64,000 bases of DNA from a virus. Lineage: Duplodnaviria > Caudoviricetes. The notes under the pieces are model-generated. The model saw nothing but the letters and a program-made list of their open reading frames with translations. It searched no databases and was not told the origin of the DNA. Each line of letters opens with the position of its first letter. Within the stretch, counting starts at the first letter, position 1. Shown here piece by piece: positions 3,328 to 35,466 of this stretch. The translations under genes and the position numbers were made by a program. The stretch covers positions 64,001 to 128,000 of the IMG/VR virus record IMGVR_UViG_3300033120_000868. The stretch is one strand, 5' to 3'.

Positions 3328-3359
3328 TTTGTATAAATTAATATTTTTTTGTAATTTTG
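3328..3359 (+). promoter_or_regulatory. Bacteroidetes sigma-A promoter (-33 TTTG / -7 TAATTTTG)
   Basis: TTTG 3328-3331, 20-nt spacer, TAATTTTG 3352-3359. Confidence 0.65.
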
Positions 3360-3401
3360 CCCCTTAGATTAATACCCTTTGGGGCATTTTTTATTATACA
3401 A

Positions 3402-7300: not shown

Positions 7301-7632
7301 GAACAGAAGCGGCAGAAGCAGACCAAAAAACAAGACAGTCAGCAGCAGATGTGGTAGCAGCTCAAACTTATCAGCAACAATTAGGAAATGAGTTAGAGAG
7401 TAATGAGGCTGATTGGCGCTCATGGTACAATCGTGTTCAAAGTAATCAGATGAATAATTATCTAACTACCAACGAGTATAATAGAAGTAACGCTTTTAAT
7501 CCTGATGTACAGTTCACAGGACAAGGATATGAAGTTATAAATACTCCAACCTACTCTGTAGATTCTGCAAAGATTCCTATGACACAAGAACCAACTAAAA
7601 AGAAAAAATCTACAAAAAGATTTGGAAAATAA
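4342..7632 (+). CDS. Putative internal virion/cargo protein (1096 aa)
   Basis: Long Cys-free ORF, Q-rich, with repeated hydrophobic-x-x-GG motifs and an EIEDGE..GAKHSEGG segment; lies in the structural module. Confidence 0.6.
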   Translation: MKKNKKQRFISDKISELKKQGKNQQESIAIALSMAENMLQKGGTSTNINEVITEANKINSSYRPIKKIQRGVTNSKGQEGVYYYYEKVPGDPGFDPSIHRDFVTNQSMAEQTFKTIEPELYNPELEKYRQLTSLKEGGELPKYQNRAIIQPNSSFFKGYDFSNPIKLEKQYPTTTYNPGTFNFSEQSQQKYYVPGQLNLNSSWEQPIPTAVNTPVVEQPTYTDKNIQQSKPSYYVNSNEENEVITPVQDKYTKTEEDIVKSNLQVTGDTNNYSQENIIETPQFERQTPPIQFANPYGGVDLNTASALFGQSLQQGDTLMGVASGAKLGLGLARNFMSGYSAGVDRNRVLNDYSSNMRNAMTGAETPVQFQEGGTANEQDQLLQQIAMMLQQGAQPEQIMQELINMGMPEQEAIQAIQMVMQQVQAPQQEQMMQDGGVARQEEVPVEMANAEIEDGEYVQDTEGVKYAEGAKHSEGGIPTQLENGARVLSDYKKVGKDLSKQFSEQLGFEVKASDTFATVLDKFNRKEEFDKKLKHLDEYADKMEKQEKIVKHDATLALNKQILIEEAQEDTQKLQELVKQQEGLFNMLFEAQEATKVMEEGGNYMQNGGTVNDLMAKYNISAEEATKLIPSMQDAGTFNIDKFGNSTNFQNLTDAATLGKMYGEARKYTPEEKEAIKKYYQTVVKDANSLKVLNDRLDNDTLVYNENLLKEVQTNKDIPLQYQSETEKNLFGVQTDSRLKDYLYASDFERKFGRPFGSSPEDESLIYKEIISALEKEGVKYHGSPVTNKGTELFGDVNAGKPKFVKEMSANKEYSLDAGLYKKATPEEKEAIARSLGVDKGILDQEANKITTGFIKFKPQGETAPSSTATVAETPMEIPTTPVVDVAQDKNRMAFLNLPDQTPMLPWAMQAPAMTRQTIYAPRWNEISPEQQLTDIQRGRVATAEQLSFLPDSQQASSLFALDANATSAQNKVRSETERYNQMARERTEAAEADQKTRQSAADVVAAQTYQQQLGNELESNEADWRSWYNRVQSNQMNNYLTTNEYNRSNAFNPDVQFTGQGYEVINTPTYSVDSAKIPMTQEPTKKKKSTKRFGK

Positions 7633-10408: not shown

Positions 10409-13400
10409 ATGGTAGATATAGAAGATTTCAAAAAACAATTAGATTTAGCTTTCCCAACAAAAACTCCACAACAAGAAAAAGTTTTTGCTGAAATGGATGT
10501 AGAATCTAAAAAACAAGAATATGCTAACAAACTAAAAATACCTTCTGCACCAAGTTCAGGAGGTTTTTTAGATACCACTAAAATTAAATCTGAGCCAGGG
10601 TTAAGATTAGAAACTCCTAATTTTAATGTAGACGAAATATTTAGTAAAACTAACTCAGGAGAGTATATTGCTAAGTTTGATACTTACACACCTGGAATTG
10701 ATAATTATGATAAATTTTCAAGAGAGCAAACTACAGGAGATAAATGGTTGAATGGGGCAACTCAATTCACACAAACGGTTGTAAATTCTATAGCAGGTTT
10801 AGGTAATCTTGTTTATGGTACAGGTGCTATGATTAAAGAAGGGGAATTATCTTCTTTTTATGATAACGACTACATGAATTGGTTGGACGATGTTTCTGAG
10901 AAAAGAAGACTTAACAATCCGATTTACAAAACTTATGAAGAGCAAGAGATGGGCTTTGGAGAAAGCTTAGGTACAGCTTCTTTTTGGGCAGATGACTTTT
11001 TACAAGGAGCTTCTTTTACAGCAGGAATGATTGCTTCTGAGCTTGTTTTAAGAGGATTAACAGGAGGTGTCGTTGGAGGAGTTGGTTTATCAAGAGCAGG
11101 TCTTTCAGCAACTACTCAAGGAGCTTCTAAAATGAACACATTTAAAAATGCAATGGGACTTGCAAGAACCGCAGCGGTAAAACCTATAACAACAGCTATG
11201 TCAAATGTCCTTCCTAAATTAGGAGGAGCTACATTTGGGGCTAACTTAGGTAAAGTAGCTAATATTGTTAGAACAGGAGTTACTTCAGCAGGATATGAAG
11301 CAGGATTTGAAGCTCGTCACTTTATGCGTGAAATGAGAGCAAATTTTGAAGAAGATTTTATTGAAGCTAATGGAGTAGCACCAACAGAAGAAGACAGAGC
11401 AGAGTTTGAATCAGCTTTAAAATCAAAAGCCAATGGTTTGTTTGCTTTCAACGTAGCAGTTGTAGGTGCAAGTAATATAGCACAATTTGGCTCGGCTTTA
11501 GGGTTAAAACTTCCTAAAGTTAAAGGTTTTTCTTCTAATCCTGATAGTTGGATAAATAGAAAAGTATTTGGAGTCGGTGTACAAGACGGAGCTATTGCTA
11601 CAGCAACAATGGGTAACAAATTAGCAAGAGTAGGATACACTTTTGGTAAGAATGCTTTTTTAGAAGGTTTTGTGGAAGAAGGTTTGCAAGGAGTAGGTTC
11701 TAAAACAGCAGAAAAAATGCTGAAAGATTCTTATAGCTTGAATAATGCAAATCAAACTATGGGATATGCTAATGCTTTCTATCAATCTATGTCTGAACAA
11801 TATGGAACAGAAGAGGGGCTAAAAGAAGTTTACTTAGGAATGCTTATTGGAGCTATGACAGGTAGTGCAACTAATTTAGTTACAGCAAGAAGTTTAGCGG
11901 ATGGTAATTTTAAAGTATTAGACCAAAGAGCTAAAGGAATTGAAAAACAACTATTAAAAGGTGGGAGTTATTCTGCGGATAATATGGCTACAAGACTTTT
12001 ATCAGCAAATAGAACAGTAGCGAATAAAAGAGACGAACAAAAAGCTATTCAAGAAGGAGATATTTCAGGAGTACAAACAGCAAGGCATTCTGAAATGTTC
12101 AATCAAACTTTAAGAGGTATTGAATTAAATTATTTAGACCAAATTAAAGAGCAAACTTTACAGCAGTTAGATGTATTATCTGACGCGGAGATTGCAGAAA
12201 TGGCGGGAGTAGAAGTATCAGAAGCTTCAAGAATTAGAGAGGAATTAAAGAACGAATACAAAGCAGAAACAAAAGTAATTGAAGACACTATTAATGCTTC
12301 TAAAGAATTAATAGCAGGCTCACTTAATAAAGGTGAATATAATTTTGCGATTGAGGAGTTTCAAAAAAGAGGGTATAGTAAAGAGATGGCTAATGCTACA
12401 GTGGCTGATATGCTACAGAAATCTTTAGCTTATGAAATGTACATTGGTAAAGTAGCTTATGAACAAGCTGATAATTTCTTAAACACTTTCTTAAACGAGG
12501 TTCAATCTTCAATTGGTTCAACAAGAGTAAAGAAAAGTTTTGGTATCAATGACACTTTAAATCGTTCAGGAAAAGCTGCGAGAAGGAATTTTAATAAAAC
12601 TAAGAAAGAGTTACAACAAACTGTATCTGAATTAGAGCAGTTAGAAAAAGATTATAGAAGAGTTGAAAACATTATTTCTCAAACAACAGCCGAAACAGGT
12701 AATAGACAACAGTTAGTAGGGCAACTAAATGATTTAGTAAATAAAAGAGAAGAGTTAAATAAAAGAAAACAGGAGTTAGAGGCTAATGCAAATGCTTTGC
12801 TATCTTCTGCTAAATTGGAAACCCCTTTTGGAGCTACAGTAGACGCTACAGAGATTACAGCAGATGAAATTTTATCTTTTGAAGAAGATATTACAAAAAC
12901 ACTTGAAGACCTAAGAAAGGTTTCTCCTGAAAAAGCTGAAAGACTTGGGGGTATGTTATATGAATATCAAAAGTCGGTTAATGCCTACAAGACATTAGAC
13001 AAAAGAGTGAAACAATTAACAGACCCTAATGTAGGACTAAGAACTAAAAAAGGATTATTACCTTCTTTGTTTGGAAGAAAAACTCCAAATGAACAGACTG
13101 CCGAAATGATTAGGGGGCTTATAAACACTCACTATCAATTAGACAGAAACACTCAAGAAGGAGTAGAGAAGGCTGTTACCAAAGCAGCGGAAGAGCAATT
13201 AGTTGAGGCAGGAGTGGATAAGAAAGAAATTTTAGACTATTTAAAAGACCAACCTTATTTATTTGAGCAGTATAATGAATCAACAGAGAATATCATACCA
13301 ACTGAAGCTGAGATTGAAGAATACTATGATTTTGCTCAGAGAAATATAGCAGGAGAAGAACCCTTAACAGACGAAGAAAAGGTAAGATTTGAAGAGCTTA

Positions 13401-15796
13401 ATACAAAGTTAGCAAATTGGTATTTAACTGAATCTACACCTTTAGCAGATATCTTAAAACAGCAAGCTTTAAGAGAGACAAAAGTTGAAGAAACAGTAGA
13501 AGATGTTTTAACAGATGAAGATGTTGATGGGATGCTTGAAAAAGATAGAAAAACAAGCAGACCTTTCAATTTTTTACAGACCGTGCAAGATGTTTATTTA
13601 CAGTTTTACAAAGATAGTAATACATACTATTTTTCTCACCTGTCACCAAGAGGATTTTTAAAATTTATTGGGGCGACAACAGATTTAAAAGTACAAAGAA
13701 AAGATAGTAAAAAAGTTGAACCTTTTTCTTTAGACGATGAATTAAAAACAGGGGATAGAGTATTCTTTGGAAACAACATGTCGTTTGCTTTAGAGGACGG
13801 AGCGAGAATAAAAATTGTAACATCAAAAGAGAACTTTAATTCTTTCGGTTTTAAAACAAGAATGACAGCAAGTGGATATAGTGTAGTTTACGATGGAGAT
13901 AAAGTTATGAAATCTGATTATGCAGATATAGACACTTACTCACCTCAAGAAATAATGAGGTTAGCTAATGGAGATGAAATATTTGCTTTTATAGATATGG
14001 AAGATAGTTATAATCAATCTCTAACAGAAGAAGAGTTTGAGCATAATGTTAAAATATCTTTCAGAGACGCTCAAGGTAATAAAATTGCAGATTTAAAAGC
14101 TTTACATTTAGCAGAGGCACAAGATACTTCAGAAATACCTGTTAAGTTTTTAGAAGCTCGTGCAAAAGCAAAAGAATTAGCTTGGGGTAAAACAGGAAGT
14201 ATTGAGTTAGGAAATGTAACAGTTGAAACAGTATTTTTAGGAGCTCCAAACGTAGTTTTAGAAAATGGAGTAGAGAAATGGCAACCTGTTGATGAAAATT
14301 TAATAGAAGACTCAGGAATGTGGAATGGAAGTAAATTAGTAACTAAGAATGGCACAAAAGGGATAAGAACAGATTTACTAAAAGGTATTGATAAGAAAGT
14401 TCCTGTTGTAATTGTAAAAGTTGGAAACACTTTAATTGCATATCCTGTTAGAGGAGGAAAAGTAGCTTCTAATATAGCAGAAACTTTCACTGAAAAAGGA
14501 GCTAAATTAGCATTAAAAATTAATGAAACTCTTATTAAAAATGGTAAAAAACCTGCTCAAATATATTATAATTCAGAGACAGACCAAAACATGTATTCAG
14601 AGGATGGAACGCCAACTCAAGAATTGCAAGATGCTTTAGACAGAGTTAACAGTATAACAACAGAATCAACAAATATAGCAGAAGCTGAAATAAACATTGA
14701 TTTAAATGGTATACCGTTCTTAGCTCCAAAGATGGCAATTAACTTGGACAGTTTCCAAACAGTTAATGTAGCACCTGTAGGGCAGGCAACCTCCCAAAGT
14801 AATATAACTAGTGAAACAAAAGTAGAAGAGGTTTTAACACAGGAGCAAAAGGATAATTTAGAAAAAGCTAAAAAAGGAGAGAAAGCTTCTCCTGCTAAGA
14901 CTATTTTTAATTCTGTACAAGATTTACTGAAACACTCAAAATCACTGTTAGGTAAAACTTTTAACGTAAAAGGATTAAATGTTCAATTCGTTGACTATAA
15001 AGGCGAGGTTTTAACAGGAGCTGGTCAAAGAGTTTTTGTAAAAGTTTTAATAAATGGAGTTCCTGTAACGTTTTATAGTTCGACAGGTTCAGGCAAGAAA
15101 GCTTTACAAGAAGGAGTTTTTTATCCAACATTAGGTATAGAGGCAGACGAGAGATTTAATGGAACTTGGATTAATAAGATAGACGGTGTTGAAATGGCTT
15201 CTTATTATGACTCTGCTTCATTAGCAGCAGTAGGAGCTTTTATAGATTCTCAATTTGGAAACACTAATGGTTTTGCAGGAAGTATAAATCAAAACACAAC
15301 TGACTTACAAAATCCTAACAAAGAAGCCTTAACTAAAGAAAAAGCTTTGGAGATTAGAAGAGAGTATAACAGTGAATATTTAAATAGCGGTAGAGAAACT
15401 TTTTCAAATAATCAAGCTAAAGAAGTTACACAAGCTTTTAAAGATTTAGTTAATGAGATAAGAGGAAAAGTTAATAATACTCAACCTGCTCAAAAACCTA
15501 AAAGCAGATTAGACTTACAAGATGATTATTTTACTTTAGATTTTAAAACGTATGCTTATTTTAGAGATACAAATGGTGATGTTTATACAAAAGAAGTTGG
15601 AGAAATAGCTAGAGCTAAAACAATGTCTAACATGGTAAAAACTCTACCAAAAGCAGAACAAGAAAGAGTAAAACAAGCATGGACAAAGCAACCAGCAGAT
15701 TACTTTGAAAGTGAAAATTTTGAGAAAGTTGTACCAAACGTAGGAACAAGTTCGCGAACAAAACAAGGTAAGAAAAATAAAGATAAAGAGTGTTAA
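10409..15796 (+). CDS. Giant putative ejection/cargo protein A (1795 aa) with G/A-rich hydrophobic N-terminal segments
   Basis: Hydrophobic helices at about aa 120-490, a coiled coil, and a single Cys as the last residue; crAss-like cargo position. Confidence 0.6.
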   Translation: MVDIEDFKKQLDLAFPTKTPQQEKVFAEMDVESKKQEYANKLKIPSAPSSGGFLDTTKIKSEPGLRLETPNFNVDEIFSKTNSGEYIAKFDTYTPGIDNYDKFSREQTTGDKWLNGATQFTQTVVNSIAGLGNLVYGTGAMIKEGELSSFYDNDYMNWLDDVSEKRRLNNPIYKTYEEQEMGFGESLGTASFWADDFLQGASFTAGMIASELVLRGLTGGVVGGVGLSRAGLSATTQGASKMNTFKNAMGLARTAAVKPITTAMSNVLPKLGGATFGANLGKVANIVRTGVTSAGYEAGFEARHFMREMRANFEEDFIEANGVAPTEEDRAEFESALKSKANGLFAFNVAVVGASNIAQFGSALGLKLPKVKGFSSNPDSWINRKVFGVGVQDGAIATATMGNKLARVGYTFGKNAFLEGFVEEGLQGVGSKTAEKMLKDSYSLNNANQTMGYANAFYQSMSEQYGTEEGLKEVYLGMLIGAMTGSATNLVTARSLADGNFKVLDQRAKGIEKQLLKGGSYSADNMATRLLSANRTVANKRDEQKAIQEGDISGVQTARHSEMFNQTLRGIELNYLDQIKEQTLQQLDVLSDAEIAEMAGVEVSEASRIREELKNEYKAETKVIEDTINASKELIAGSLNKGEYNFAIEEFQKRGYSKEMANATVADMLQKSLAYEMYIGKVAYEQADNFLNTFLNEVQSSIGSTRVKKSFGINDTLNRSGKAARRNFNKTKKELQQTVSELEQLEKDYRRVENIISQTTAETGNRQQLVGQLNDLVNKREELNKRKQELEANANALLSSAKLETPFGATVDATEITADEILSFEEDITKTLEDLRKVSPEKAERLGGMLYEYQKSVNAYKTLDKRVKQLTDPNVGLRTKKGLLPSLFGRKTPNEQTAEMIRGLINTHYQLDRNTQEGVEKAVTKAAEEQLVEAGVDKKEILDYLKDQPYLFEQYNESTENIIPTEAEIEEYYDFAQRNIAGEEPLTDEEKVRFEELNTKLANWYLTESTPLADILKQQALRETKVEETVEDVLTDEDVDGMLEKDRKTSRPFNFLQTVQDVYLQFYKDSNTYYFSHLSPRGFLKFIGATTDLKVQRKDSKKVEPFSLDDELKTGDRVFFGNNMSFALEDGARIKIVTSKENFNSFGFKTRMTASGYSVVYDGDKVMKSDYADIDTYSPQEIMRLANGDEIFAFIDMEDSYNQSLTEEEFEHNVKISFRDAQGNKIADLKALHLAEAQDTSEIPVKFLEARAKAKELAWGKTGSIELGNVTVETVFLGAPNVVLENGVEKWQPVDENLIEDSGMWNGSKLVTKNGTKGIRTDLLKGIDKKVPVVIVKVGNTLIAYPVRGGKVASNIAETFTEKGAKLALKINETLIKNGKKPAQIYYNSETDQNMYSEDGTPTQELQDALDRVNSITTESTNIAEAEINIDLNGIPFLAPKMAINLDSFQTVNVAPVGQATSQSNITSETKVEEVLTQEQKDNLEKAKKGEKASPAKTIFNSVQDLLKHSKSLLGKTFNVKGLNVQFVDYKGEVLTGAGQRVFVKVLINGVPVTFYSSTGSGKKALQEGVFYPTLGIEADERFNGTWINKIDGVEMASYYDSASLAAVGAFIDSQFGNTNGFAGSINQNTTDLQNPNKEALTKEKALEIRREYNSEYLNSGRETFSNNQAKEVTQAFKDLVNEIRGKVNNTQPAQKPKSRLDLQDDYFTLDFKTYAYFRDTNGDVYTKEVGEIARAKTMSNMVKTLPKAEQERVKQAWTKQPADYFESENFEKVVPNVGTSSRTKQGKKNKDKEC

Positions 15797-15803
15797 AGAG
15801 AGA

Positions 15804-15828
15804 GGAGTTCAGAAATGAGCTCCTTTTT
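15804..15828 (+). terminator. Rho-independent terminator
   Basis: GGAGTTC-AGAAAT-GAGCTCC stem followed by TTTTT, just after the stop codon. Confidence 0.7.
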
Positions 15829-15858
15829 AACTTATTTTAATATTTAATTTTTTTGTTG

Positions 15859-15894
15859 TATATTTGCGTATCAAAAAATAAAATTGTATATTTG
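15859..15894 (+). promoter_or_regulatory. Tandem Bacteroidetes promoter elements
   Basis: TATATTTG at 15859-15866 and 15887-15894; the first TTTG lies 20 nt before the second -7 box. Confidence 0.7.
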
Positions 15895-15910
15895 CATAAA
15901 ATTAAGATAA

Positions 15911-18900
15911 ATGAACTGTAGAATAATTTACAAAGATAGTAAAATAGACCACGTACAAGCTGAAAATGGAGAAAGAAGTATTCTTTTTGATTCTCTTAAA
16001 GATATTTTTGGCGCGGAAAAAGCTTTAGAATTGTATGCTTTAACTGAAGAAGACGGCTACAAACAAAAAATACAAGAAAAAGTAAGAAGTTTTGTAGGAG
16101 TTACAGAAAAACAAATAGATAAACTATCTGAAGCAATTGATGCACAAGAAACATTAAATAAACTTGTAGAAACAGGTTTAGCTGATAACGTATATCAAAT
16201 GACTTCTGAAGAGATAGAAGCTAAGTTAGTTGAACTTGGAGTGGAAGCTGATGTGGCTAAACAGGTAGCTCAGTCAGGAGGATATTATTCTAACGCTAAT
16301 ACTGCATTTGCAAATTTAAAAGACAAAAATGTTAAAAATGTACAAGGTTGGATGAAAGCCCTAACTGACGTACAAAAAAATGGCGGAATAAAAAATGTAA
16401 ATCAAGAACTTGAATGGATAGGTCTTGAAGATTATTTAAATAACTACGTAAAAGAAAACAACCCAAAAGCAGGTAACATCCCTTCTTCTGTGGTTGAAGA
16501 TTATATTAAGTCAAATCAGATTGAGATTGTTGATGTTACTAAGGGAAACAATATTGTACAACAAGAGATTGAAGATAACAGTAAAAGATTAGATTTCATC
16601 ATTAACGAGTTAGATAATAAATATCTTTTTGATGAAAGCGGTAATAGAGTTCACTATATTAAAGATGAGAATCTACCAAAAGAAGCTGTAGCTTTAATAA
16701 TTGAGAGAGAAGAACTTAAAAAAAGAAACAGAGAACTTTTAAAATTAAATCAGAAAGACACAAAATACTCAGGATACCAACTAAAAGGAGCAGAAAACTA
16801 CAGAGAGGTATTGTTAACAGTTCCAAAAATAGGGCAAGAAAAAAACAGACAAAACCAAATAGATTTTGTAGATTCATTAAAGAAAAAATATAATGTTAAT
16901 ACTGTTATAGATTTAGATAAAGTTGTAAATGATGAGGAAAGAACTAAATGGGAAGAATTAACGACCAAAGCAAATATATCTCCTGAAAAGGATAATAAAT
17001 ATTTTAGTAGTCATTGGGAGGAAGCTAATATTTTAGCTCACGTAAGGTTAAATGAAAAAACTTTACCTGATGGACGTAAAGTGTTGATTGTTAATGAAAT
17101 TCAATCAGATTGGGCACAACAGGGGAGAAAGGAAGGATTTAAAAGAACAAAACAAGCTCAAAATGAACTTATAGCAGAGCATAGAAAAGTATTACAAGAT
17201 TTAGAAGAATTAGACGTACAAATAATCGATGCAGTAGATAATAAAAAACCTAATATTTTAGAACTAGGAGAAAAGAAAGCGGAATTAATTAAAAAATCAG
17301 ATGAATTAAGAAGTGATATTTTTAAACCTCGTGCTCCTCAAATGCCTTATAAAAACACAGACCAATGGACTGGAATTGTTGTAAGAAGAGTGATGCAAAT
17401 GGCTTCACAAGAAGGTTATGATGGAATTGCTTTTGCTACAGGTCAACAGTCTGCTGATATGTATAGTTTATCTAATCAAGTTGAAGTTCTGTATTACAAA
17501 AAGAATGAAGATGGAACTTATGAAGTAGATGCTGATTTAAAAAATGGAGATAATAGAAACATTGGCGAATCTGTAACAGAAGATAAACTTGCAGACTATG
17601 TAGGTAAAGAGGTTGCAAACAAAATTATTGCAGGAGAAGGTACAAACTCCCCATCTCGAATGGATGAAGGTTATAAGTTTTTAAAAGGTTTAGAACTTGA
17701 AGTCGGAGGAGAAGGTATGAAAACTTTCTATGATAAGATTGTACCTAAAGTAGTTCAAAAAGAAGCTCAAAGATTTGATAAAAACGCTAAGTTAGAGACT
17801 GTCGATTTTAGTGATAATTTTACTTTTAGTAAGAAAGAGTTAGATGATTACACGAATTATTTACTAAACAAATATAATTTAGATAAGACAGGGAGGTATA
17901 GAATATTAATAGGGAAAAATGCAACAACAGAAGAAGTAGCTAAATATAAAAACTTATTAGAGAATTTTAGAAAAGATAATGATAGTAAGACATCTCAAGG
18001 TGATAAACTATCTTTAGGAGTACAACCATACTTACCACTAACACAAGCTATAAAAGATTCAGTTAATCAAGGTATACCTCAATTCCAAAAATCAGGAATA
18101 ACTCCAATTACAAACGGGTTTATTTATAAGAATGATGTATATTTAAATAAGAATGCAGATGAATCTACAATGGTACATGAGTTTAACCATTTATACAACA
18201 ATTGGTTAAAACAAAACCGTCCTGAAGTTTATAAGAAAGGTTTAGATTTAATTAAGGAGGAGTTAAAAAAGAAGAACAGTGAAATCCAAGACATAATCAA
18301 TTTTGTAAAAACTAATCAACCAAAATTAGAAGGAGATGCACTTTTAGAAGAGATTATTACCGAAATGGTCGGAAGGAAAGGGCTTGAATTATTAAATGAG
18401 CAAAAAGATAAAGTAAAAAGCTCAGGAATAATTGACTATTTAAAACAAGTTTGGCAAGAAATTAAAAATATGTTAGGATTATCATCTTACACAGATGAAC
18501 AAATCCTAAACATGAATTTACAAGATTTTGCCAACGCTTCTGCTGTAGATTTATTGAGTGGAGAAAACATAGGAAGATTCTCAACAGATAGTAATGACAT
18601 TAGGTTTAGTCAAACTATACCAACATTTAAAGGAAATGCTGATATAGAGAGAATAAAAAAACTTAATAAAAAAGGAAACGAAGATGGAGCAACATTTAAT
18701 TTAGATGGAAGTACTTATGATAAGGGAGGTTTAATTATACCTGTAATTAGTTTAAATACTACTCAAAAGGAGTTATCGAAAGAGCTTATAGAAAAGTTTA
18801 TTCAGGAAAATTCAAGTAAGATTGGAGCTGATAATATTAAAGTAGGTATTTTTAAGTTTGAAGATTCTAATGAAGTATCTATAGATTTAAATGTAGTAGT

Positions 18901-21637
18901 AGATGCTAAGTATAGAGACATAGGTTTAACTTTTGGAAAGTATGCAGGACAAGAATCTTTATTTGATTTAAGTACTTTTTTACCTGCAAAAACAGGTGCA
19001 GATGGTAAGAACCCTAAAAATTTCACAGATGAGGAGTTTAGGGATATTGCTAATAGCTTATCAGAAGGTAAGTTACCTAGCTTTTTAAATTTATCTCCGC
19101 AAACTTCTACAAATTATGCAAATTTAACAGAAGATGGAGAAGGAAACTTTGTATTTTACCATGTAGGAGGTAAAGGATATGATGTAATAAAAAGAGGTAC
19201 AGGACAAAACACAGCAACAAGCAGAGAAGAAGCAACAGCTATAAACAGAGTAGGTGGAGTAGCAATGTATTATCCTGCTGAAAATGTTCAAGAGTCTATG
19301 TTTTCAGGAGAAGCTAAGTATTTAGTAAAAGTTCCTCAAGAGAAAGTTTACGACTTTAATAGAGACACTTTAAATTTATTAGACGAAGCTGAGCAAATGT
19401 TTAGAAAGCAGTTTCCTAATCAAGCTTTTGATAAAAACTCTAAGTTAGCTTTTGTAACTAAAATCGCTAATGAAAAAGGATTTGATGCAGTTGTAGCTAA
19501 TTGGGATAATACAACAAGAGTTCAAACAACTAAAGAGTTGAAACCTTTAGATGAGCAAATTACAGAAGGTAATAAAATTGTTAAAGATTTTTCCGCCGAA
19601 AATAAATTTAAATCAAATAAAGATAAAGGTTGGCAAGTTGTCCCAACAGTTATGCAAAGCAAGCTATTAAAAGACGTATATGATAAAATAGATACTTTAG
19701 TAGGAAACGACTTTTCAAATCCTTTGTATAGAGTTAGAGAAATGGCAGGGTATACTTTTGAAGACAGATTTGCACCATTTAAATCTCAAGATGAGATAAC
19801 GGATGTAGTAGAAAAATCAGACCTTCCTCAAGAAGTGAAAGATGAGTACAATCAAGCAGTTAACTCCAAAGACAAGCTAGGATATTCAAAATTGACTAAA
19901 AAACCTTCTTTAAAGATAGACATAAGAGAAGTTAACGGAAGATTAGTTGTTGAAACTTTAGTAAATGAGACTAAAGCAGGTGCGTTGAGAATGTTGCCTT
20001 ATGAAGATGGTTATAAAGTAGAGTCAGTTATAGTGTACGATAAGTATCAAAATAGACGTTTGGGGACACGATTGTATCAAGAAGCTATAAAGTTTCTATT
20101 GAAGAGTCAAACTCCTTTATACTCTCTTAAAGTACGTAGTGAAAATGCTAAAAAGATTTGGGACAAGTTTGTAGAAATAGGTGTGGCTCAAAAAGTAGGT
20201 GAAGATTATATTGCACCAAATAAAGGAGGATTGGATAAGAACAATGAGGCAAATCCTTCTGATGTAATGCAATATGCAAACACAACAGATGAAAAACTGT
20301 CAAAAGAAGAAACAGCAGAAGCTATCGACTTAACAGTTTCTTTAGGAGTTGAATCAAGCCAAGAAGCTGTAGCTATTTTAAAGGATACGTTCTTAGAAAA
20401 CAACTCTTTTGTGTTTGATAAAAAGAAAATGAAAAAATCAGGGTTTAATGATTATGAAATTACAAAGATATTAGTTGATGTAAATTTACAGAATCAAATT
20501 AAGAACAACTTGGCAAAATTAGAGAACATGGATTTTTCTGTACCTCTAATGGACGTTCAAACAACACCTGAAATTGGAATTTTTGGAAAACAAAAAGTAA
20601 AACCGAAAGTTAAAACTGTAAATGTAAAAACAGTAAACGAACAAGGAGAAGTAATAGATAAAGTTTCAGATACAAAAGAGTTATTAAGAAAAACTTATCC
20701 TGATACTTTACCAACAGAAATTCCACAAATAATAAGTAGTCTTTTAAAAGCTTCTGAAAGTGTAGTTAATAAGTATAATGATTTATTTTATAATACTTTA
20801 GATGATTTAAAAGATGTTGCTTTAGATTTAGGTGTAGATTTAAAAGATATTGAGAATAGAGTGTTTCCTTTAGAAAACTTTAAATCTTTTGTAAACTCTT
20901 TAATGAATTATTATACAAATCCAAGTGATGCTTTTGCTGAAGTTTATGATGAGTTTTTTGAGAATTATGGCGTGGAAAAAGCTACTAAACCAACAATATC
21001 AACTCCATATACAGAATATGAGTTATTTGATAAATTCAATTTAGTAAGAAACGGAGACGAATATGTTAAAGTTGAAGATGTAGAAATCGAACCGTCTGCT
21101 GAAAGACAAGCTAAAATTCCACAATTAGAAGTAGAAGATTTTGCTGTTGATTTTGATAAATTAGAGAAATTAGTTTATCATAAAGAGCAGTTAGGAGTTG
21201 AAATGAAAACTTTACAGAAGCCTTTAGTTGAAGAGATTAATCTTAGAGAAGTTAAGAAAAATCCTTACTTAAAAGCAACTTCTGAAGGTGTAAAATTAGT
21301 AAGCGAAGACCCTCTAACAGCTCAAAAAGCAGAGTTATATGGGTACGAGCCAAAAGTGGCGGAAAAACAACCTAAAAAGATAGAAACAGATTATTCTTTA
21401 ATCCAAGATGTATTAGTAACACAACTAACTTCCGAAAATAAAGTAAGAACACCAAAAGGTAACTTTACTAAATTTATGGACGACAATAATAAATCAGTGT
21501 TTTTATTAGACGGTTCAAAACAAAGTACAGTAGATTTAGAAGGATATTTATCTAAAGCGGACAACACACCAAAAATCGAGGCTAAAAAATTATACTCAAA
21601 AGAAGAATATGAAAATAATTTTGGATGTTTAAATTAA
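15911..21637 (+). CDS. Giant polyvalent virion protein B (1908 aa): LPD-type domain, zincin HExxH, ART-like, GNAT
   Basis: NYREVLL..SHW..LAHVR..EIQSDW..GMKTFYD block; HEFNH; FYH..YY..GFDAV; VIVYDKYQNRRLGTRLY..SENAKKIW. Confidence 0.65.
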   Translation: MNCRIIYKDSKIDHVQAENGERSILFDSLKDIFGAEKALELYALTEEDGYKQKIQEKVRSFVGVTEKQIDKLSEAIDAQETLNKLVETGLADNVYQMTSEEIEAKLVELGVEADVAKQVAQSGGYYSNANTAFANLKDKNVKNVQGWMKALTDVQKNGGIKNVNQELEWIGLEDYLNNYVKENNPKAGNIPSSVVEDYIKSNQIEIVDVTKGNNIVQQEIEDNSKRLDFIINELDNKYLFDESGNRVHYIKDENLPKEAVALIIEREELKKRNRELLKLNQKDTKYSGYQLKGAENYREVLLTVPKIGQEKNRQNQIDFVDSLKKKYNVNTVIDLDKVVNDEERTKWEELTTKANISPEKDNKYFSSHWEEANILAHVRLNEKTLPDGRKVLIVNEIQSDWAQQGRKEGFKRTKQAQNELIAEHRKVLQDLEELDVQIIDAVDNKKPNILELGEKKAELIKKSDELRSDIFKPRAPQMPYKNTDQWTGIVVRRVMQMASQEGYDGIAFATGQQSADMYSLSNQVEVLYYKKNEDGTYEVDADLKNGDNRNIGESVTEDKLADYVGKEVANKIIAGEGTNSPSRMDEGYKFLKGLELEVGGEGMKTFYDKIVPKVVQKEAQRFDKNAKLETVDFSDNFTFSKKELDDYTNYLLNKYNLDKTGRYRILIGKNATTEEVAKYKNLLENFRKDNDSKTSQGDKLSLGVQPYLPLTQAIKDSVNQGIPQFQKSGITPITNGFIYKNDVYLNKNADESTMVHEFNHLYNNWLKQNRPEVYKKGLDLIKEELKKKNSEIQDIINFVKTNQPKLEGDALLEEIITEMVGRKGLELLNEQKDKVKSSGIIDYLKQVWQEIKNMLGLSSYTDEQILNMNLQDFANASAVDLLSGENIGRFSTDSNDIRFSQTIPTFKGNADIERIKKLNKKGNEDGATFNLDGSTYDKGGLIIPVISLNTTQKELSKELIEKFIQENSSKIGADNIKVGIFKFEDSNEVSIDLNVVVDAKYRDIGLTFGKYAGQESLFDLSTFLPAKTGADGKNPKNFTDEEFRDIANSLSEGKLPSFLNLSPQTSTNYANLTEDGEGNFVFYHVGGKGYDVIKRGTGQNTATSREEATAINRVGGVAMYYPAENVQESMFSGEAKYLVKVPQEKVYDFNRDTLNLLDEAEQMFRKQFPNQAFDKNSKLAFVTKIANEKGFDAVVANWDNTTRVQTTKELKPLDEQITEGNKIVKDFSAENKFKSNKDKGWQVVPTVMQSKLLKDVYDKIDTLVGNDFSNPLYRVREMAGYTFEDRFAPFKSQDEITDVVEKSDLPQEVKDEYNQAVNSKDKLGYSKLTKKPSLKIDIREVNGRLVVETLVNETKAGALRMLPYEDGYKVESVIVYDKYQNRRLGTRLYQEAIKFLLKSQTPLYSLKVRSENAKKIWDKFVEIGVAQKVGEDYIAPNKGGLDKNNEANPSDVMQYANTTDEKLSKEETAEAIDLTVSLGVESSQEAVAILKDTFLENNSFVFDKKKMKKSGFNDYEITKILVDVNLQNQIKNNLAKLENMDFSVPLMDVQTTPEIGIFGKQKVKPKVKTVNVKTVNEQGEVIDKVSDTKELLRKTYPDTLPTEIPQIISSLLKASESVVNKYNDLFYNTLDDLKDVALDLGVDLKDIENRVFPLENFKSFVNSLMNYYTNPSDAFAEVYDEFFENYGVEKATKPTISTPYTEYELFDKFNLVRNGDEYVKVEDVEIEPSAERQAKIPQLEVEDFAVDFDKLEKLVYHKEQLGVEMKTLQKPLVEEINLREVKKNPYLKATSEGVKLVSEDPLTAQKAELYGYEPKVAEKQPKKIETDYSLIQDVLVTQLTSENKVRTPKGNFTKFMDDNNKSVFLLDGSKQSTVDLEGYLSKADNTPKIEAKKLYSKEEYENNFGCLN

Positions 21638-21651
21638 TTTTCATATCTTTG
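21620..21651 (+). promoter_or_regulatory. Bacteroidetes sigma-A promoter
   Basis: TTTG 21620-21623, 20 nt, TATCTTTG 21644-21651. Confidence 0.7.
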
Positions 21652-21678
21652 CAAAATAAAATAACAAAAATAATATAA

Positions 21679-24600
21679 ATGGCTTGTAAATTAGTATACA
21701 ACAATGAAGGACAATTTGTGAAGGCTCTAACTCCTGATGGGAGAGAGTCTTCCTTATTTAAACAAATTTTAAGTATTCCGCACATTAGAAGTGTAAAGGA
21801 AGCTTCTGAACTATATGCAAATATTTTCTCTAAGAAAATGTATTCTATTATGGGAGAAAAAGGAGCTCAAAACTTAGATAAAGCTCAAGAAGTTACATTC
21901 CGTATGGATAATCTTCGTATTGCTAAAGAAATGGAGAAAGAAAATAAATCTCCAAAAGAAATAAAATTAGCAACGGGGTGGGAAAGAAGTGAAGTAGATA
22001 ATAAATTCAGGTATGAGATTTTAGACGGAAGTTTTTCTAATTTAAATTATGAAAGAAATCAACCTCATGGTACTTTTACAAACGGAGTAGGTGTCTTACC
22101 TTTATCTGAAATATATCAAAATAAGGAACTATTTGACGCTTATCCAAATATAGAAAATAGTTCTGTAGTCATATACTCAACAGATAACCCTGTATTTGAC
22201 CAAGCTACTATGTTTAATTTTCAAAATACTATATTTATAAATGAAAGAAAATCAATTACCACAAATACCGAAGGACTTCATACCCTCACCAACCAGGGGA
22301 GAAGAGTATTATTACACGAATTATCCCACTCTGTTCAAAATATTGAAGGATTTGGAAGAGGAGATAATCCTGCAACAATGGCAACAAGAATTAAAGATGC
22401 CCTTAATGAATTTAAAAGCGAGAATAAGACAGTTGATGAAATAAAGCCAAATACTATTTTAAACACTTTAAAAAATATAGGTGTTGACTTTTCTTTTGGA
22501 TTAGATGATTTTTCTATAGACTATATAGCACAGAATTATTCTGAAGACTTATACGAAAGAGTTTCAGGAGAAGTTGAAGCAAATAACGTATCAAAAAGAT
22601 TTGGAATGAGTTTAGAAGAAAGAAGAAATTCCCTTTTTTCAGAGACACAAGACGTATCTACAGAAGACCAAATATTTTTAGAAAATAATTTAGGAGTGAG
22701 TTCAAAAGTAGAACCACAACTAAACTTCCAATCAGATAAAGGAAATACATTCAAAACTTTCAAAGAAGCTTTAAAAGATTCTACAGGAGGTGATATGAAC
22801 GTGTTATTTGATGACCAAGTAGTTGGAGTAATTAACAGTGAGCAAAATTTAGATACTTTTGGAGGAACAGTAAACCATTTAATTGCAAGTAATATTTTAT
22901 CAGAAAACACTATTGTAGAAAACGGTAAAGTTTATTTAAAAGCAGAAGGTTTTGACCCTCTAAAACAACTTATTAATGAAGACTACTTAAAAGAATATTT
23001 CCCACTATCAAAAATTACAAGAGACGGTAAAGTGGAAGTATTAGAAAGAGTAGAACCTTCTGTTATTAGAGATGTATTTAGGACTTTCTCGCCAAGTGAA
23101 GGACAACTTTCGGAAGAAACATTAAAAGACAGAATGTTAAATTTCTTAAAAGAGGTTGGCATCACTGTAACTTCTATTGATAATTATGTAAAAGCTTATA
23201 AGATTAGAAATGGTGTTGCACCAGGAGCTGAAGCTATTGCAGACTTTGCTAATCAAGTAATTGCGTTTAAAGATGGAGAAATAGAAATTGACAAACTTTC
23301 AGAAGAAACAGCTCACTTTATTATTGAGAATTGGGATGAAGCTGAGATTAGAAATCTTACACGTAATATTCACAAAACTCAAACTTTTGCTGAGTTCTAT
23401 CAACAATATTATGAGATTTATCAAAGAGAGAATCCTGAAATGTCTGCCGAAGAATTAGATTTTTTCACAAGAAAAGAAATTTTAGGAAAAGAGTTAGCAA
23501 AAAGTTTACAAGATAGATTTGATGCTACAAATAAAGAGCCTAACATTCTTAAAAGAATTTATGAACTTTTTGCTAAATTTATCAGTAGTTTAACAACTCA
23601 AGGTAATTATAAAGCTCAGTTAGAAGATTTAACTGAGAAGGTTGATGATTTATTATTAAGAAAAGATGCAGGAGCTGTTTTTCAATTGAAAAATAAAAAG
23701 TTTAGAATGTACTCATTGCCTCAAACTAATGTAGTTAAGGCGGTAGCGGAACAAGAAAAACTTTTAGCAAGAACAGGGCAAGGCTCTAATAAAACAGCAA
23801 AAGAGGTTTTGGATAGCGTTTCAAAAGCCGCGGAAAAAGCTACAACGGATAGTGTAGTTACTTTAGCTAAAAGACAGGTAAAATATGTTAAAGAAGCCGT
23901 AGATGCAGCCGTTAGAAGAGGAAGACCTCTTTCAACAGAAGAGTCATTAGTTTTAAACAACTTAACTCATGCGGTTAGACCTGCTTTAGAAGGATTACAA
24001 GCTTTTATAAAGAATAAGTCGGAATATAAAAAACAAGCAGACGTAGTTGAAAAAACTTTATCTGAGATTTCTATGATTTCAGGCTCTTATAATAACGCGG
24101 AAAACAATTTAGTAGACCAATTATTAGACAGAATTATTGAAAGAAATCCTGGATTAGAAAGTAAAAGAGACCAATTAAAAGCAGAAATAGAAACAGTACA
24201 AAGGGATACTAATTACATGTATTCTTACTTTGGACAGGTTTCTCACGCTTCTGACCCAATTCTACAAATGTTAGCTGTTGTAGGTAGTGATATTTACAAT
24301 GAAGCGAGGATAAACTATAACGAGCGTCAAATGGCGTTTAATAGAAAAATAAAAGAACTAGGATTTGTAGAAAGAGATGTGAACAAGTTAGTTGGCAGTG
24401 ATGGTCATATTATCTCTAAGTGGGATTTTGAAGAATTTGCAGAATTTGAAAGATATGCAAGAGGTAAAGCTTATTTAGATAATGTTGATGCTATTATAGC
24501 AGATTTAGAATCAAGACCTGTAGAAAACCAAGATAATTTAGAAGAGCATAAAGCTTATAAAGCAATGTCTCAAGAAGAGTTTTTAGAAAAATTTGAATAT

Positions 24601-27600
24601 TTCCCTGCAATTACAAATAAAGTTTTGGCAGCAAGAACTTCAGCTCAAGCAACAGAGATTATAAATCAAGGAGAAGAAACTACTTTATCAGACGAAGAAG
24701 TACAAAAGAGAATTACAAACAATGCAAATTTAAGTGATGTAACTAAAGCTACAATAAGAGGCTTTATGGAGACAAGAGCTATGATTCGTAAAAACATGAA
24801 AACTTCTTCTTCAGGCACTAAAATTTATACGTTACAGAACAGACACGATATGGAGTATTTGAATATGGAGCGTAGAAAAGCTATGTCAATTTATAAGACA
24901 GAAAACGCTAAGGAAGTTAAGCAAGGACTATCCACTTCAACTGCCAAAATTGGGCAAGAAAATTTATTTTTAGAAATTGAAAATCAGTATTTAAATTTAG
25001 ATAGAGCTAACGCGTCGGATGAAGCAATTATAGCTTTTGAAATGCTAAGACAGCAGAAAGAGTTCATGTCTAAAAACACTTCAAGACTTTCAGGAGTTAC
25101 AGAAAAATTCATGCAGGATTTAGAAGATATGGAAAAAGACCCTGAAGTGACAAGAGAAGATTTAATAGATTTTATTAAACTTAACACTTCTGTAGGGTTT
25201 TCTGATTCATTTTTTGAAGGGGAATTTACTTCTGTTTTTGATACAATAGAGAATGATGTAAATACACCTGATGAGTTACAAGACACTTTAATTTTATATA
25301 AGGAAGCTTTAAAAGAAAGAAAAGCTATTTTAGCTAGGTATAGAGACCCAAACAATGCAACAAATGTTTTGACCCATAACATGAATGATTTAGATTTGTA
25401 TAACCTTGAACAACTTACAATAGAGTTAGAGGGACAAACTAAAACATTACTGGACTATGCTAAAAAACAAGGATTAACTTCAGAGCAAGCAGAAAAAAGA
25501 ACAGTAAAAGCTCCAAATGAGTCTTATTATGAGGAATTGAAAACTCAAAATTTAGAAGATTTTGAAGATATATACAGTTTTACTATAAAACACATGACTC
25601 CAAAAGCTAAAATGGCTGTAGGGGCGTATAAATTAGCAATTGAATCAGGGAATATTCCTGAAAGAATGGAGTCTTTAGTTGTAGAATATGGGGCTAATGA
25701 AGAAGGTATTTTAAAATATGCTCAATCTAAAATGCTACCATATTACAGTTCAAATTCTCCTATAGGATTAGTAGAGTTTTATGACAATTTAAGAAATTCT
25801 CAAACAGCAGTTTCTGACCTTGTAAAAGGGTTAGATGCAGACCCTGATGTAAGACTTTCAGTTTCTTATGATTATTCTGATAGTACTTCTGATGAAGCTT
25901 TAAATAAATTTAAAGACCCTGATTTTAGAGCCAACACAAGAGAGCCGTCTTTAAGAAAACCTGCTCCTACAGTATTTGGAAAAACATTCGATTTTAATAA
26001 TAAGGAGTATAGTAAATTAACTCCTCAATTATTAGAATTGCAAAAAGCTTACTTAGACTTTCAAGAAGAAAATTTAAAAGGTTATGGTGTAGAAGCAAAT
26101 TATAATATATATAAACTACCTCAAGTAGAAAGAGCAAATTTAGATAAGCTTAAAGGGTTTGGTAAAGACACAAAAGCTACTTTTAAGGAGTATGTGGAAA
26201 GGATAACAACTCATAGAGTAGATGAGCAGGATTTTGGAGCAGATAGAGAAATGTTTAATGCGGGTATAAAAACAATACCTAAAAAATATTTAAGTAAATT
26301 AAACAAAGAAGAAGTATCGACAGATTTATTATATTCTTCAGCTTTACTTGCACAACAAGTAGAATTATATAAAGCAAGAGTTAAATATTTTGGAGAAATT
26401 TCAGCTTTAGAGAAGAAGTTACAGTCAAGACAGTTTATTGGAGGAAAACCTGTACAATCTTCAAATACTTATGCTATGTTTAAGTCGGCTGTAGACAATA
26501 TGATGTTTGGAATACAAGAGACTCAACAGATGAGAGTTAGCGTTCCAATTTTAAATAAGGAGGTAGACTTATCTAAGGTTTTAAGAACCTTGCAAAGATA
26601 CGTATCTAATCTGAGTTTAGCATTTAATCCTATTGTACCAGCAACTTCCATGCTAACAGCTATGTCAGCTTATGTAGCTGAACCATTTATAAAACAGTAT
26701 ATAGACCCTGAAAGTTACAAGAAAGGGTCTATGACAGCTAAAAAATGGATGGGAGCAAGTATGAAGGATACAGGAAGTATTGATGTAAAATCGGATGCTG
26801 TAGCTGTAGGAAATCATTTTGGTATTTTTGATTTAGCTCAAAGGTATAAGAATGCAAATTATGAAAAGTTTGTGAGAACAGCAGTTGGTAACGCTTCTTA
26901 TGGATTACACACAGTAGGTAATTTTATACCGCTAACTCAAGCTGTCGCAGTAACGCTTACAGCGCATAGATTTAGTAATAATAAATTAATTACAAGAAAA
27001 GAGTTTGCAGGAACAGATGTTGAATGGGGCAGATTAAAAAGTGTAGCTGATTACATAGAAAATAGTAATGGGGAGATGACTTACAACTCAGAAATGTTAA
27101 GAGAAAACGGCATAACACCTGAACAGTGGAAAAACATTGAGTTAGGGCTTATGTCAAGAGTTGGTAAGATTGTTGAACGAATTGATGGGCAGATTAAAAC
27201 TCAAGATAGAACAGTAGCGCAAAGAAATTTCTTACTGTCTTGGAGTATGCTTCATAAGGGGTGGTTAGCAATCGGTACAGCTAATGCTTTTAAAGGAAAG
27301 CAGATTAATATGTTAACAGGTCAAGTTGAGCAAGGAAAATATACAGGAGCATTAAGTTGGGCGATGAAATCAGCAGGTCAAAAATTTAATATTAAGAATA
27401 TTAAAGATAAGTACGGAGAAGTAGATGAGGCTGATAAAGTTTCAGCAAGAAGAGTTTTAGTAGAGTCAGGGGTTTTAATGATATTAACTATTTTAGGATT
27501 TTTTATAGCGGCAGGTGCTGACGACGATGAAGAAAGTACAACAAAACAGCTTGCAAATTATTTAGCTTTAAGAACTAAAAATGAAACAATTTCTTCTCAA

Positions 27601-27918
27601 GCAGGTATTATTGGGGAGATATACAAATCTTTAGCATCCCCTTTAGTAGGACTTTCAAGAGTTAAAAATATTGCTACTTTTTGGCACGTATTTGATTCAG
27701 ACGAAGTAAAGACAGGCAGATATGCAGGATTAACAGGTACTGAACAATATATAATTCAAGCTATTCCTGGTTTAAAAGCTGCTTATGATGTAGCTTCACC
27801 TAAGAATATTAAAACACAAGCGAACACTTATGACCATTTTAATAAAGAAAACGAGGTATTTAACATATTCAGTGTTATGTTAAACGAAATTGAAGAAGAA
27901 GACGAGAATGAAGAGTAA
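21679..27918 (+). CDS. Giant polyvalent virion protein C (2079 aa): LPD23-like + zincin, helical body, C-terminal hydrophobic segment
   Basis: ATGWER..DNKFRYEI, ELFDAYP, LLHELSHSVQNIEGFGRG, GEVEANNV; degenerate EETAH; TM-like VLMILTILGFFIAAGA. Confidence 0.65.
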   Translation: MACKLVYNNEGQFVKALTPDGRESSLFKQILSIPHIRSVKEASELYANIFSKKMYSIMGEKGAQNLDKAQEVTFRMDNLRIAKEMEKENKSPKEIKLATGWERSEVDNKFRYEILDGSFSNLNYERNQPHGTFTNGVGVLPLSEIYQNKELFDAYPNIENSSVVIYSTDNPVFDQATMFNFQNTIFINERKSITTNTEGLHTLTNQGRRVLLHELSHSVQNIEGFGRGDNPATMATRIKDALNEFKSENKTVDEIKPNTILNTLKNIGVDFSFGLDDFSIDYIAQNYSEDLYERVSGEVEANNVSKRFGMSLEERRNSLFSETQDVSTEDQIFLENNLGVSSKVEPQLNFQSDKGNTFKTFKEALKDSTGGDMNVLFDDQVVGVINSEQNLDTFGGTVNHLIASNILSENTIVENGKVYLKAEGFDPLKQLINEDYLKEYFPLSKITRDGKVEVLERVEPSVIRDVFRTFSPSEGQLSEETLKDRMLNFLKEVGITVTSIDNYVKAYKIRNGVAPGAEAIADFANQVIAFKDGEIEIDKLSEETAHFIIENWDEAEIRNLTRNIHKTQTFAEFYQQYYEIYQRENPEMSAEELDFFTRKEILGKELAKSLQDRFDATNKEPNILKRIYELFAKFISSLTTQGNYKAQLEDLTEKVDDLLLRKDAGAVFQLKNKKFRMYSLPQTNVVKAVAEQEKLLARTGQGSNKTAKEVLDSVSKAAEKATTDSVVTLAKRQVKYVKEAVDAAVRRGRPLSTEESLVLNNLTHAVRPALEGLQAFIKNKSEYKKQADVVEKTLSEISMISGSYNNAENNLVDQLLDRIIERNPGLESKRDQLKAEIETVQRDTNYMYSYFGQVSHASDPILQMLAVVGSDIYNEARINYNERQMAFNRKIKELGFVERDVNKLVGSDGHIISKWDFEEFAEFERYARGKAYLDNVDAIIADLESRPVENQDNLEEHKAYKAMSQEEFLEKFEYFPAITNKVLAARTSAQATEIINQGEETTLSDEEVQKRITNNANLSDVTKATIRGFMETRAMIRKNMKTSSSGTKIYTLQNRHDMEYLNMERRKAMSIYKTENAKEVKQGLSTSTAKIGQENLFLEIENQYLNLDRANASDEAIIAFEMLRQQKEFMSKNTSRLSGVTEKFMQDLEDMEKDPEVTREDLIDFIKLNTSVGFSDSFFEGEFTSVFDTIENDVNTPDELQDTLILYKEALKERKAILARYRDPNNATNVLTHNMNDLDLYNLEQLTIELEGQTKTLLDYAKKQGLTSEQAEKRTVKAPNESYYEELKTQNLEDFEDIYSFTIKHMTPKAKMAVGAYKLAIESGNIPERMESLVVEYGANEEGILKYAQSKMLPYYSSNSPIGLVEFYDNLRNSQTAVSDLVKGLDADPDVRLSVSYDYSDSTSDEALNKFKDPDFRANTREPSLRKPAPTVFGKTFDFNNKEYSKLTPQLLELQKAYLDFQEENLKGYGVEANYNIYKLPQVERANLDKLKGFGKDTKATFKEYVERITTHRVDEQDFGADREMFNAGIKTIPKKYLSKLNKEEVSTDLLYSSALLAQQVELYKARVKYFGEISALEKKLQSRQFIGGKPVQSSNTYAMFKSAVDNMMFGIQETQQMRVSVPILNKEVDLSKVLRTLQRYVSNLSLAFNPIVPATSMLTAMSAYVAEPFIKQYIDPESYKKGSMTAKKWMGASMKDTGSIDVKSDAVAVGNHFGIFDLAQRYKNANYEKFVRTAVGNASYGLHTVGNFIPLTQAVAVTLTAHRFSNNKLITRKEFAGTDVEWGRLKSVADYIENSNGEMTYNSEMLRENGITPEQWKNIELGLMSRVGKIVERIDGQIKTQDRTVAQRNFLLSWSMLHKGWLAIGTANAFKGKQINMLTGQVEQGKYTGALSWAMKSAGQKFNIKNIKDKYGEVDEADKVSARRVLVESGVLMILTILGFFIAAGADDDEESTTKQLANYLALRTKNETISSQAGIIGEIYKSLASPLVGLSRVKNIATFWHVFDSDEVKTGRYAGLTGTEQYIIQAIPGLKAAYDVASPKNIKTQANTYDHFNKENEVFNIFSVMLNEIEEEDENEE

Positions 27919-27982: not shown

Positions 27983-28014
27983 TTTGCATATATGAAAACT
28001 TTTTTGTATCTTTG
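27983..28014 (+). promoter_or_regulatory. Bacteroidetes sigma-A promoter
   Basis: TTTG 27983-27986, 20 nt, TATCTTTG 28007-28014. Confidence 0.75.
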
Positions 28015-28033
28015 CGTTTTAAATAATTAAAGT

Positions 28034-34971: not shown

Positions 34972-34982
34972 TTATTACTTAT

Positions 34983-35465: not shown

Positions 35466-35466
35466 A

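Follow-up and report, generated by a model that had tools for sequence, protein, structure and literature searches.

Cysteines confined to the facing ends of giant virion proteins suggest a head-to-tail tether in a phi4:1-like, crAss-related podophage

Three giant proteins, here named A, B and C, are encoded one after the other in the window, by which we mean the whole stretch of 64,000 nucleotides (nt) analysed, positions 64,001 to 128,000 of the virus record IMGVR_UViG_3300033120_000868 (Caudoviricetes); the genome is a complete virus record of 143,493 bp (G000). Together the three proteins have 5782 residues and only four cysteines, all of which stand at termini that face a junction between two of the proteins. 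This terminal-cysteine rule is kept in hundreds of proteins at 25-50% identity, and the cysteine pair disappears where two members are fused into one protein. We infer that A, B and C are virion-packaged, injected proteins of a marine phi4:1-like, crAss-related podophage, and we lean towards the view that they are tethered head to tail in the order A-B-C, most likely by disulfide bonds. The genes and residues concerned are the following (aa, amino acids):

10409..15796, plus strand: protein A, 1795 aa, first member of the proposed chain, gp47/g067 family (PHROG 32390 and BLASTP)
15791..15793, plus strand: codon of Cys1795, the sole cysteine of A and its C-terminal residue (translation)
15911..21637, plus strand: protein B, 1908 aa, middle member of the proposed chain, predicted polyvalent effector carrier with Cys3 and Cys1906 (translation, Pfam)
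15911..16090, plus strand: N-terminal cysteine module of B (~60 aa; profile E 9e-18), with the codon of Cys3 at 15917-15919
21626..21628, plus strand: codon of Cys1906, which lies in the C-terminal NF[GSN]C motif; B ends in GCLN before the stop codon (translation)
21679..27918, plus strand: protein C, 2079 aa, last member of the proposed chain, gp49/g065 family with an added N-terminal polyvalent part (PHROG 37651, E 7e-130)
21679..21861, plus strand: N-terminal cysteine module of C (Cys3 codon at 21685-21687, the sole cysteine of C; profile E 2e-22)

The original prediction, made from the letters of the DNA, had placed the sole cysteine of A at its last residue, those of B at positions 3 and 1906 and that of C at position 3, and translation matched it in each case. 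With the cysteine content of the other open reading frames (ORFs) of the window as background (1.31%), about 76 cysteines would be expected in A, B and C, and the Poisson probability of four or fewer is about 2e-27; the frequency in the cargo block is 0.049%. That each of the four junction-facing termini should receive one cysteine by chance has a probability of about 2e-12, and in the whole 143-kb genome a cysteine among residues 2-6 or the final three occurs in only about 4% of the other ORFs. The starts of B and C are the first start codons of their respective open frames.

BLASTP related A to crAss001 gp47 (E 4e-11) and phi14:2 g067 (E 3e-8), and related residues ~1450-2030 of C to cr118_1 gp13829 (E 6e-19), to the RNA polymerase-associated subunit gp13305 of cr106_1 (E 1e-10) and to crAss001 gp49 (E 1.5e-5); C gave no direct BLAST match to phi14:2 g065. 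Judged from sequence, A-B-C is the 'RNA-polymerase-associated' cargo block of crAss-like phages (g067-g066-g065 in Cellulophaga phage phi14:2, gp47-gp50-gp49 in Bacteroides phage crAss001), with which it shares giant, cysteine-poor, virion-packaged proteins, their order and the terminal-cysteine rule. In the crAss block the middle protein is the two-barrel DFDxD virion RNA polymerase, whereas here the middle protein B is a predicted polyvalent effector. The crAss trio is known from virions and, in some phages, occurs as fusions (bioRxiv 10.1101/2020.03.07.982082). The closest cultured relatives, about 26% identical, are the Cellulophaga phages phi4:1 and phi17:2 (Lightbulbvirus, 145 kb). Their genes gp038-gp037-gp035 share the synteny, including the cysteine-free gp039-gp041, and the same cysteine rule, but the middle slot holds 517 aa instead of 1908 aa and an unrelated small gene, gp036, separates the middle member from the last. 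In the annotation of the record, the phi4:1 homologues of A and C, as well as gp037 in the B slot, are proteins of the virion that mass spectrometry has detected.

The position of the cysteines is strongly conserved. A search with residues 1-1000 of A against 1.84 billion cluster representatives gave an A-family set of 133 proteins of at least 1450 aa with a mutual identity of at most 50%. A cysteine lies within the last nine residues in 128 of these 133 representatives (70 as the last residue, 32 at -1 and 19 at -2), no further cysteine is present in 124 of the 133, and internal cysteines number only 8 in 243,553 residues. Among 66 C-family proteins, 64 have a cysteine at position 2-5, none has a C-terminal cysteine and 61 have no other cysteine; the two exceptions look truncated at the N-terminus. 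Both end cysteines are kept in 10 of 11 B-family proteins, whose lengths range from 1052 to 1969 aa, and the motif NF[GSN]C with its cysteine is present in all 11. Moreover, the cysteine is the sole invariant column in 17 aligned A tails and likewise in 26 aligned N-termini.

The same picture emerged at the level of whole loci, for which 80 viral contigs with A homologues were retrieved. At every split locus, the A homologue ends in cysteine, the last protein has an N-terminal cysteine only, and the middle proteins have one cysteine at position 3-9 plus another 0 to -2 from the end. Tabulation of cysteines in relatives, which the original prediction had proposed as a check, thus came out in its favour: in every split relative examined, a C-terminal cysteine accompanies the N-terminal cysteine module of the next protein. 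Chains have two members in L004, L006 and L007, three at most loci and four in L008, and the number of cysteine pairs matches chain size in two-, three- and four-member chains, with one extra pair in L008. In phi4:1, gp038 (1957 aa) ends in its sole cysteine, gp037 (517 aa) carries cysteines at positions 4 and 516, and gp035 has Cys3 alone. In phi14:2, the sole cysteine of g067 is again the last residue, the virion RNA polymerase g066 (PDB 6VR4) has only Cys3 and Cys2179 of 2180 residues, and g065 has Cys3 alone. In crAss001, gp47 has its sole cysteine at 2339 of 2341, gp50 has Cys5, an internal Cys1334 and Cys2404 of 2412, and gp49 has Cys5 alone; cr106_1 and cr118_1 likewise follow the rule.

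The rule spans overlapping, spaced and opposite-strand gene layouts as well as varying cysteine offsets. Indeed, in crAss001 and cr106_1 the gene of the first member is found on the opposite strand, and csAssE-like phages have chain members 10 kb apart, so that the cysteine rule tracks the order of the proteins and not the adjacency of the genes. This bears on the earlier claim that A is without an upstream partner. Among the split relatives examined, the first member never has an N-terminal cysteine and the last never a C-terminal one; the claim, however, was framed in terms of gene order, and protein order is what counts. A separate observation concerns csAssE-Sib (OR575929), in which the last member is annotated as two overlapping genes (L002:33086-33931 and 33831-39488), namely a 281-aa 'hypothetical protein' with a Cys5 N-terminal module and a 1885-aa 'structural protein'. 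A frameshift, or a split introduced by sequencing or annotation, is the probable cause; in L038 the frame is open for at least 498 aa.

Gene fusions serve as natural experiments. Two contigs each encode the first and second members as one fused ORF, of 4636 and 5131 aa, which contains the DFDxD motif. Each fused ORF has exactly one cysteine, as its penultimate residue, and the next gene begins Met-Ala-Cys. The cysteine pair is therefore gone precisely where a peptide bond replaces the junction: it is absent at the fused internal junction and retained at the remaining one. In the fused 4946-aa protein of cr118_1, homology to the gp47 tail stops at about residue 1784 and homology to g066 restarts at residue 1871, aligned to g066 residue 113, so that the tail and N-terminal module, about 250 residues in split forms, are reduced to about 87 at the fusion point. 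A profile of the module, run against the fused giants, found no significant remnant at the junction (best E 3.7, residues 1757-1787 of the 4636-aa protein).

The N-terminal segment that the original prediction had described as common to B and C and absent from A was recovered with a profile built from 26 N-termini, which matches B and C at the E-values given above and A not significantly. The complete genome contains only two copies of this module, in B and C, which match in number the two giants, A and B, whose only C-terminal cysteine ends a chain. An AlphaFold2 model of B residues 1-85, made from the 26 sequences (model mf2cc2d8f68f6), reached a pLDDT above 90 over residues 1-70. It predicts with confidence a beta-hairpin (4-8, 11-16), a short strand and then three helices, with the cysteine directly before the first strand. 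The region before the C-terminal cysteine is hypervariable and rich in Lys and Glu, and the last 36 residues of the A-tail model have no predicted structure. Foldseek searches with the module model against PDB and BFVD gave no match at E <= 0.001, and a Pfam scan of the 26 N-termini found no recurrent family and no support for an RRE/PqqD-like fold. In a wide VIA-align search the best match had a Z of 5.8, under the noise level of the tool (about Z 7-8). RRE/PqqD-like domains that bind RiPP leader peptides recur among these sub-threshold matches and are a lead for a peptide clamp, not evidence for one: TbiB1 (5v1u, Z 4.8, 69 aligned, root-mean-square deviation 3.4), lasso B1 (6jx3, Z 4.1), CteB (5wgg, Z 4.2) and MadB (9g04, Z 4.2).

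What lies between the conserved ends differs from one relative to another. Pfam found a GNAT domain in B (aa 1341-1414; 23.4 bits vs a cut-off of 20.7), and homologues of B carry ART-PolyVal. Two further features were located in C:

21895..22029, plus strand: LPD23 (large polyvalent protein associated domain 23) at aa 73-117 of C (Pfam PF18838, 32.4 bits vs a cut-off of 27)
27454..27510, plus strand: hydrophobic, transmembrane-like segment of C, aa 1926-1944 (Kyte-Doolittle 19-residue mean 2.36)

Given the GNAT domain in B, LPD23 in C and ART-PolyVal in relatives of B, both B and C qualify as polyvalent proteins as defined by Iyer et al. 2017 (PMC5512222). Members of the B family (P0217-P0227, L093:6273-9620, L094:5684-9952) have near-identical ends, that is, the N-terminal module and the last ~470 aa ending in NF[GSN]C, and middles in which ART-PolyVal, LPD23, GNAT and DUF3293 are swapped or deleted. 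In the close relative L093, C is 90% identical and B has 1115 aa and is without residues ~102-890; in another close relative, L094, B has 1422 aa and an ART domain. This variation looks like cassette exchange within a constant carrier. The hydrophobic segment of C lies about 135 residues from its C-terminus, and weaker equivalents occupy the corresponding position in crAss001 gp49 and phi14:2 g065; insertion into a membrane is a possibility for the last chain member.

The DFDxD motif is present in g066, in gp50 and in the fused giants. A, B and C contain no D[FY..]DxD motif, and no large ORF bearing DFDxD was found in the 143-kb genome, nor did this genome give a match to g066, the latter being a weak negative. 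In PDB sequence searches, B, C and the A2 profile (C with its homologues) matched no entry, 6VR4 included. B stands in the slot that holds the RNA polymerase in crassviruses, and it is not that polymerase.

Taken together, the complementarity of the termini, the balanced numbers of cysteines, their near-terminal placement and the loss of the pair on fusion argue for a head-to-tail link. A disulfide would be the simplest chemistry, since single cysteines face each other and no other ligand is conserved. Two intermolecular bonds would then form, one between the C-terminal cysteine of A and Cys3 of B and the other between Cys1906 of B and Cys3 of C, and each junction would be built from the ~60-aa N-terminal module of B or C and the Lys/Glu-rich variable tail before the C-terminal cysteine. 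As each cysteine lies a few residues from a chain end, A-B-C would form a near-linear thread, able to pass through a channel like one polypeptide. Such a 'virtual polyprotein' might be packaged at fixed stoichiometry and then drawn N-to-C through the narrow tail, protein by protein, so that A, B and C would enter the host ahead of or together with the DNA and the thread would come apart in the reducing cytoplasm without a protease. The payload of B (GNAT, ART and LPD modules) would be exchanged among relatives between constant linking ends. More tentatively, the covalent, redox-cleavable 'virtual polyprotein' might work through an N-terminal peptide clamp that captures the preceding cysteine tail before a disulfide locks the pair, with generic adaptor ends that accept any middle payload, be it an RNA polymerase as in crassviruses or exchangeable anti-host effectors as here. 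Disulfide chemistry is plausible for the group, since intermolecular disulfides are visible by cryo-EM in crAss001 virions, whose cargo has been proposed to leave partly unfolded, N-to-C (PMC10172136).

Several points weigh against a disulfide tether. The bond between the facing cysteines is something we infer from the protein sequences. The host cytoplasm, where assembly takes place, is reducing. Erv1, thioredoxin and glutaredoxin were not detected in the genome, a negative that is uninformative for Erv1, whose probe was silent in all control genomes. With a reducing cytoplasm and no detectable phage thiol oxidase, the disulfide would need to form spontaneously in the particle. Moreover, no sequence feature enforces the pairing of A with B over that of A with C, the tail of A is hypervariable and modelled at a mean pLDDT of 47, so that specific docking is no more than a possibility, and a few A-family members have an extra internal cysteine or a cysteine 9-16 residues from the end. 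The facing termini might instead be joined by a metal ion shared by thiolates, maybe of several copies as in a zinc-hook-like clasp, or by another thiol-dependent link. The same complementarity data apply to such a link, which would require no oxidant and would fit a reducing cytoplasm, strictly anaerobic hosts and the failure to detect a phage thiol oxidase. However, each terminus offers a single cysteine with no conserved His, Asp or second cysteine nearby, a stable site would require four termini, and crAss001 virions show disulfides and not metal clasps; we consider a non-disulfide link unlikely.

Uses of the terminal cysteines other than a tether were also weighed, and together they keep a modest share of the probability. 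The cysteines might anchor each protein to another virion component (portal, capsid interior or tail) or form A-A and C-C homodimers, which would agree with the use of intermolecular disulfides by crAss001 structural proteins and with the view that a virion contains each cargo protein in several copies. Neither arrangement predicts the complementarity, the cysteine balance or the double loss at fused junctions, and an anchor to the particle would impede ejection, so that this explanation, too, is unlikely. A role after ejection only, with no link in the virion (redox sensing or activation, transient trapping by periplasmic oxidoreductases, or acylation that would associate the protein with a membrane), appears less probable still. 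The hydrophobic segment near the C-terminus of C and its gp49/g065 relatives might suit it, as might the attribution of the cysteine depletion of ejected proteins to their passage past periplasmic disulfide catalysts (PMC11445570), but head-to-tail complementarity and loss on fusion would remain unexplained, no lipobox or signal peptide is present, and the cysteine at position 3-5 adjoins a folded module. Chance, a gene-calling artefact or a side effect of start and stop signals in the nucleotide sequence is effectively refuted: some N-terminal cysteine positions do move with the choice of start codon (759-aa variants, L008), but the probability is of the order of 1e-12 in the window alone and the pattern is conserved family-wide.

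Three other candidates were rejected. A split intein does not fit, as the cysteine of A is its last residue with nothing after it and a hypervariable tail before it, and Pfam scans found no HINT/intein family. A bacterial lipoprotein was discarded because the cysteine at position 3-5 stands directly before a folded beta-hairpin, with no hydrophobic leader, signal peptide or lipobox. A CaaX-type reading was rejected from the sequence itself.

The disulfide tether can also be set beside other ejected proteins. The giant virion proteins ejected by Schitoviridae, N4 gp50 and DEV gp71-gp73, are purged of cysteine (PMC11445570). They share this purge with A, B and C, but have no conserved terminal cysteine and form no chain, and functionally they equal the fully fused form. 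Polyvalent proteins, known from phages and conjugative elements, share the multi-domain injected architecture of B and C (LPD23 and GNAT here, ART-PolyVal in relatives), and release of their domains by metallopeptidase autoproteolysis has been proposed (PMC5512222); the word 'cysteine' does not occur in the main text of that paper. The terminal cysteines are mentioned neither there nor in bioRxiv 10.1101/2020.03.07.982082 nor in the crAss001 atlas. The original prediction knew of no description of such a system, and none was found in the searchable literature, which leaves many subscription papers outside its coverage.

The intergenic regions between A, B and C contain signals of their own:

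15799..15828, plus strand: terminator-like hairpin directly after the stop codon of A (13-pair stem, then a T run; 0 expected in shuffles)
15859-15868 and 15887-15896, plus strand: promoter-like motif TATnTTTGCR in two copies, 15-52 nt upstream of the start of B (motif count)
21644..21653, plus strand: promoter-like motif TATCTTTGCA, 26 nt upstream of the start of C (motif count)

TATnTTTGCR has 11 sites in the window against 2.0 expected, including one at 28007-28016 just after C and seven further sites. It is probably the -7 element of the phage's Bacteroidota-type promoters and, if so, B and C would be transcribed on their own. The generic Bacteroidetes -33/-7 promoter pattern was not enriched (5 matches vs 2.5 expected). 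The hairpin argues against translational coupling of A and B or readthrough between them. A polyprotein made by readthrough or frameshift was likewise rejected, given the hairpin and promoter-like motifs between A and B, the stops in all frames and the location of crAss001 gp47 on the opposite strand.

Upstream of A, the virion genes continue as a plus-strand block, which PHROG matches label as virion structural proteins. Three of its members are context and not part of the proposed chain:

3357..4355, plus strand: 332-aa transglycosylase-like virion protein, cysteine-free (PHROG 4067, transglycosylase, E 1.7e-16)
4342..7632, plus strand: 1096-aa virion protein, phi4:1 gp040-like, cysteine-free (PHROG 36695, virion structural protein, E 4.5e-38)
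7669..10407, plus strand: 912-aa virion protein, phi4:1 gp039-like, cysteine-free (PHROG 32131, E 1.7e-27)

Translation agrees with the original prediction that none of the three has a cysteine. The Pfam Transglycosylas match of the 332-aa protein is slightly under the cut-off. In phi4:1, gp026 (L001:5984-6412), a few kb from the cargo block, is annotated as 'cysteine dioxygenase'.

To conclude, the cysteine depletion of ejected proteins in N4 and DEV was already known, as were the presence of the crAss trio in virions and its fusion in some phages. What our analysis adds is that the terminal-cysteine rule reaches a phi4:1-like lineage without the crAss polymerase and that the middle member there appears to be a modular effector carrier with constant linking ends; it also provides large-scale counts for the A, B and C families and a confidently predicted fold for the N-terminal module. 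Among human gut phages crassviruses are the most abundant, and they have to pass about 5 MDa of cargo protein, their RNA polymerase included, through a narrow tail. A conserved end-to-end tether, if true, would explain ordered ejection, the fixed stoichiometry of the three giants and the freedom with which their genes fuse and split. The idea is directly testable in cultured phi14:2, crAss001 and phi4:1. Such a tether would be independent of the RNA polymerase, and the middle position would behave as an adaptor-flanked slot for exchangeable effectors. Thus, our results may bear on phage counter-defence and possibly on the use of phage particles as protein-delivery vehicles.

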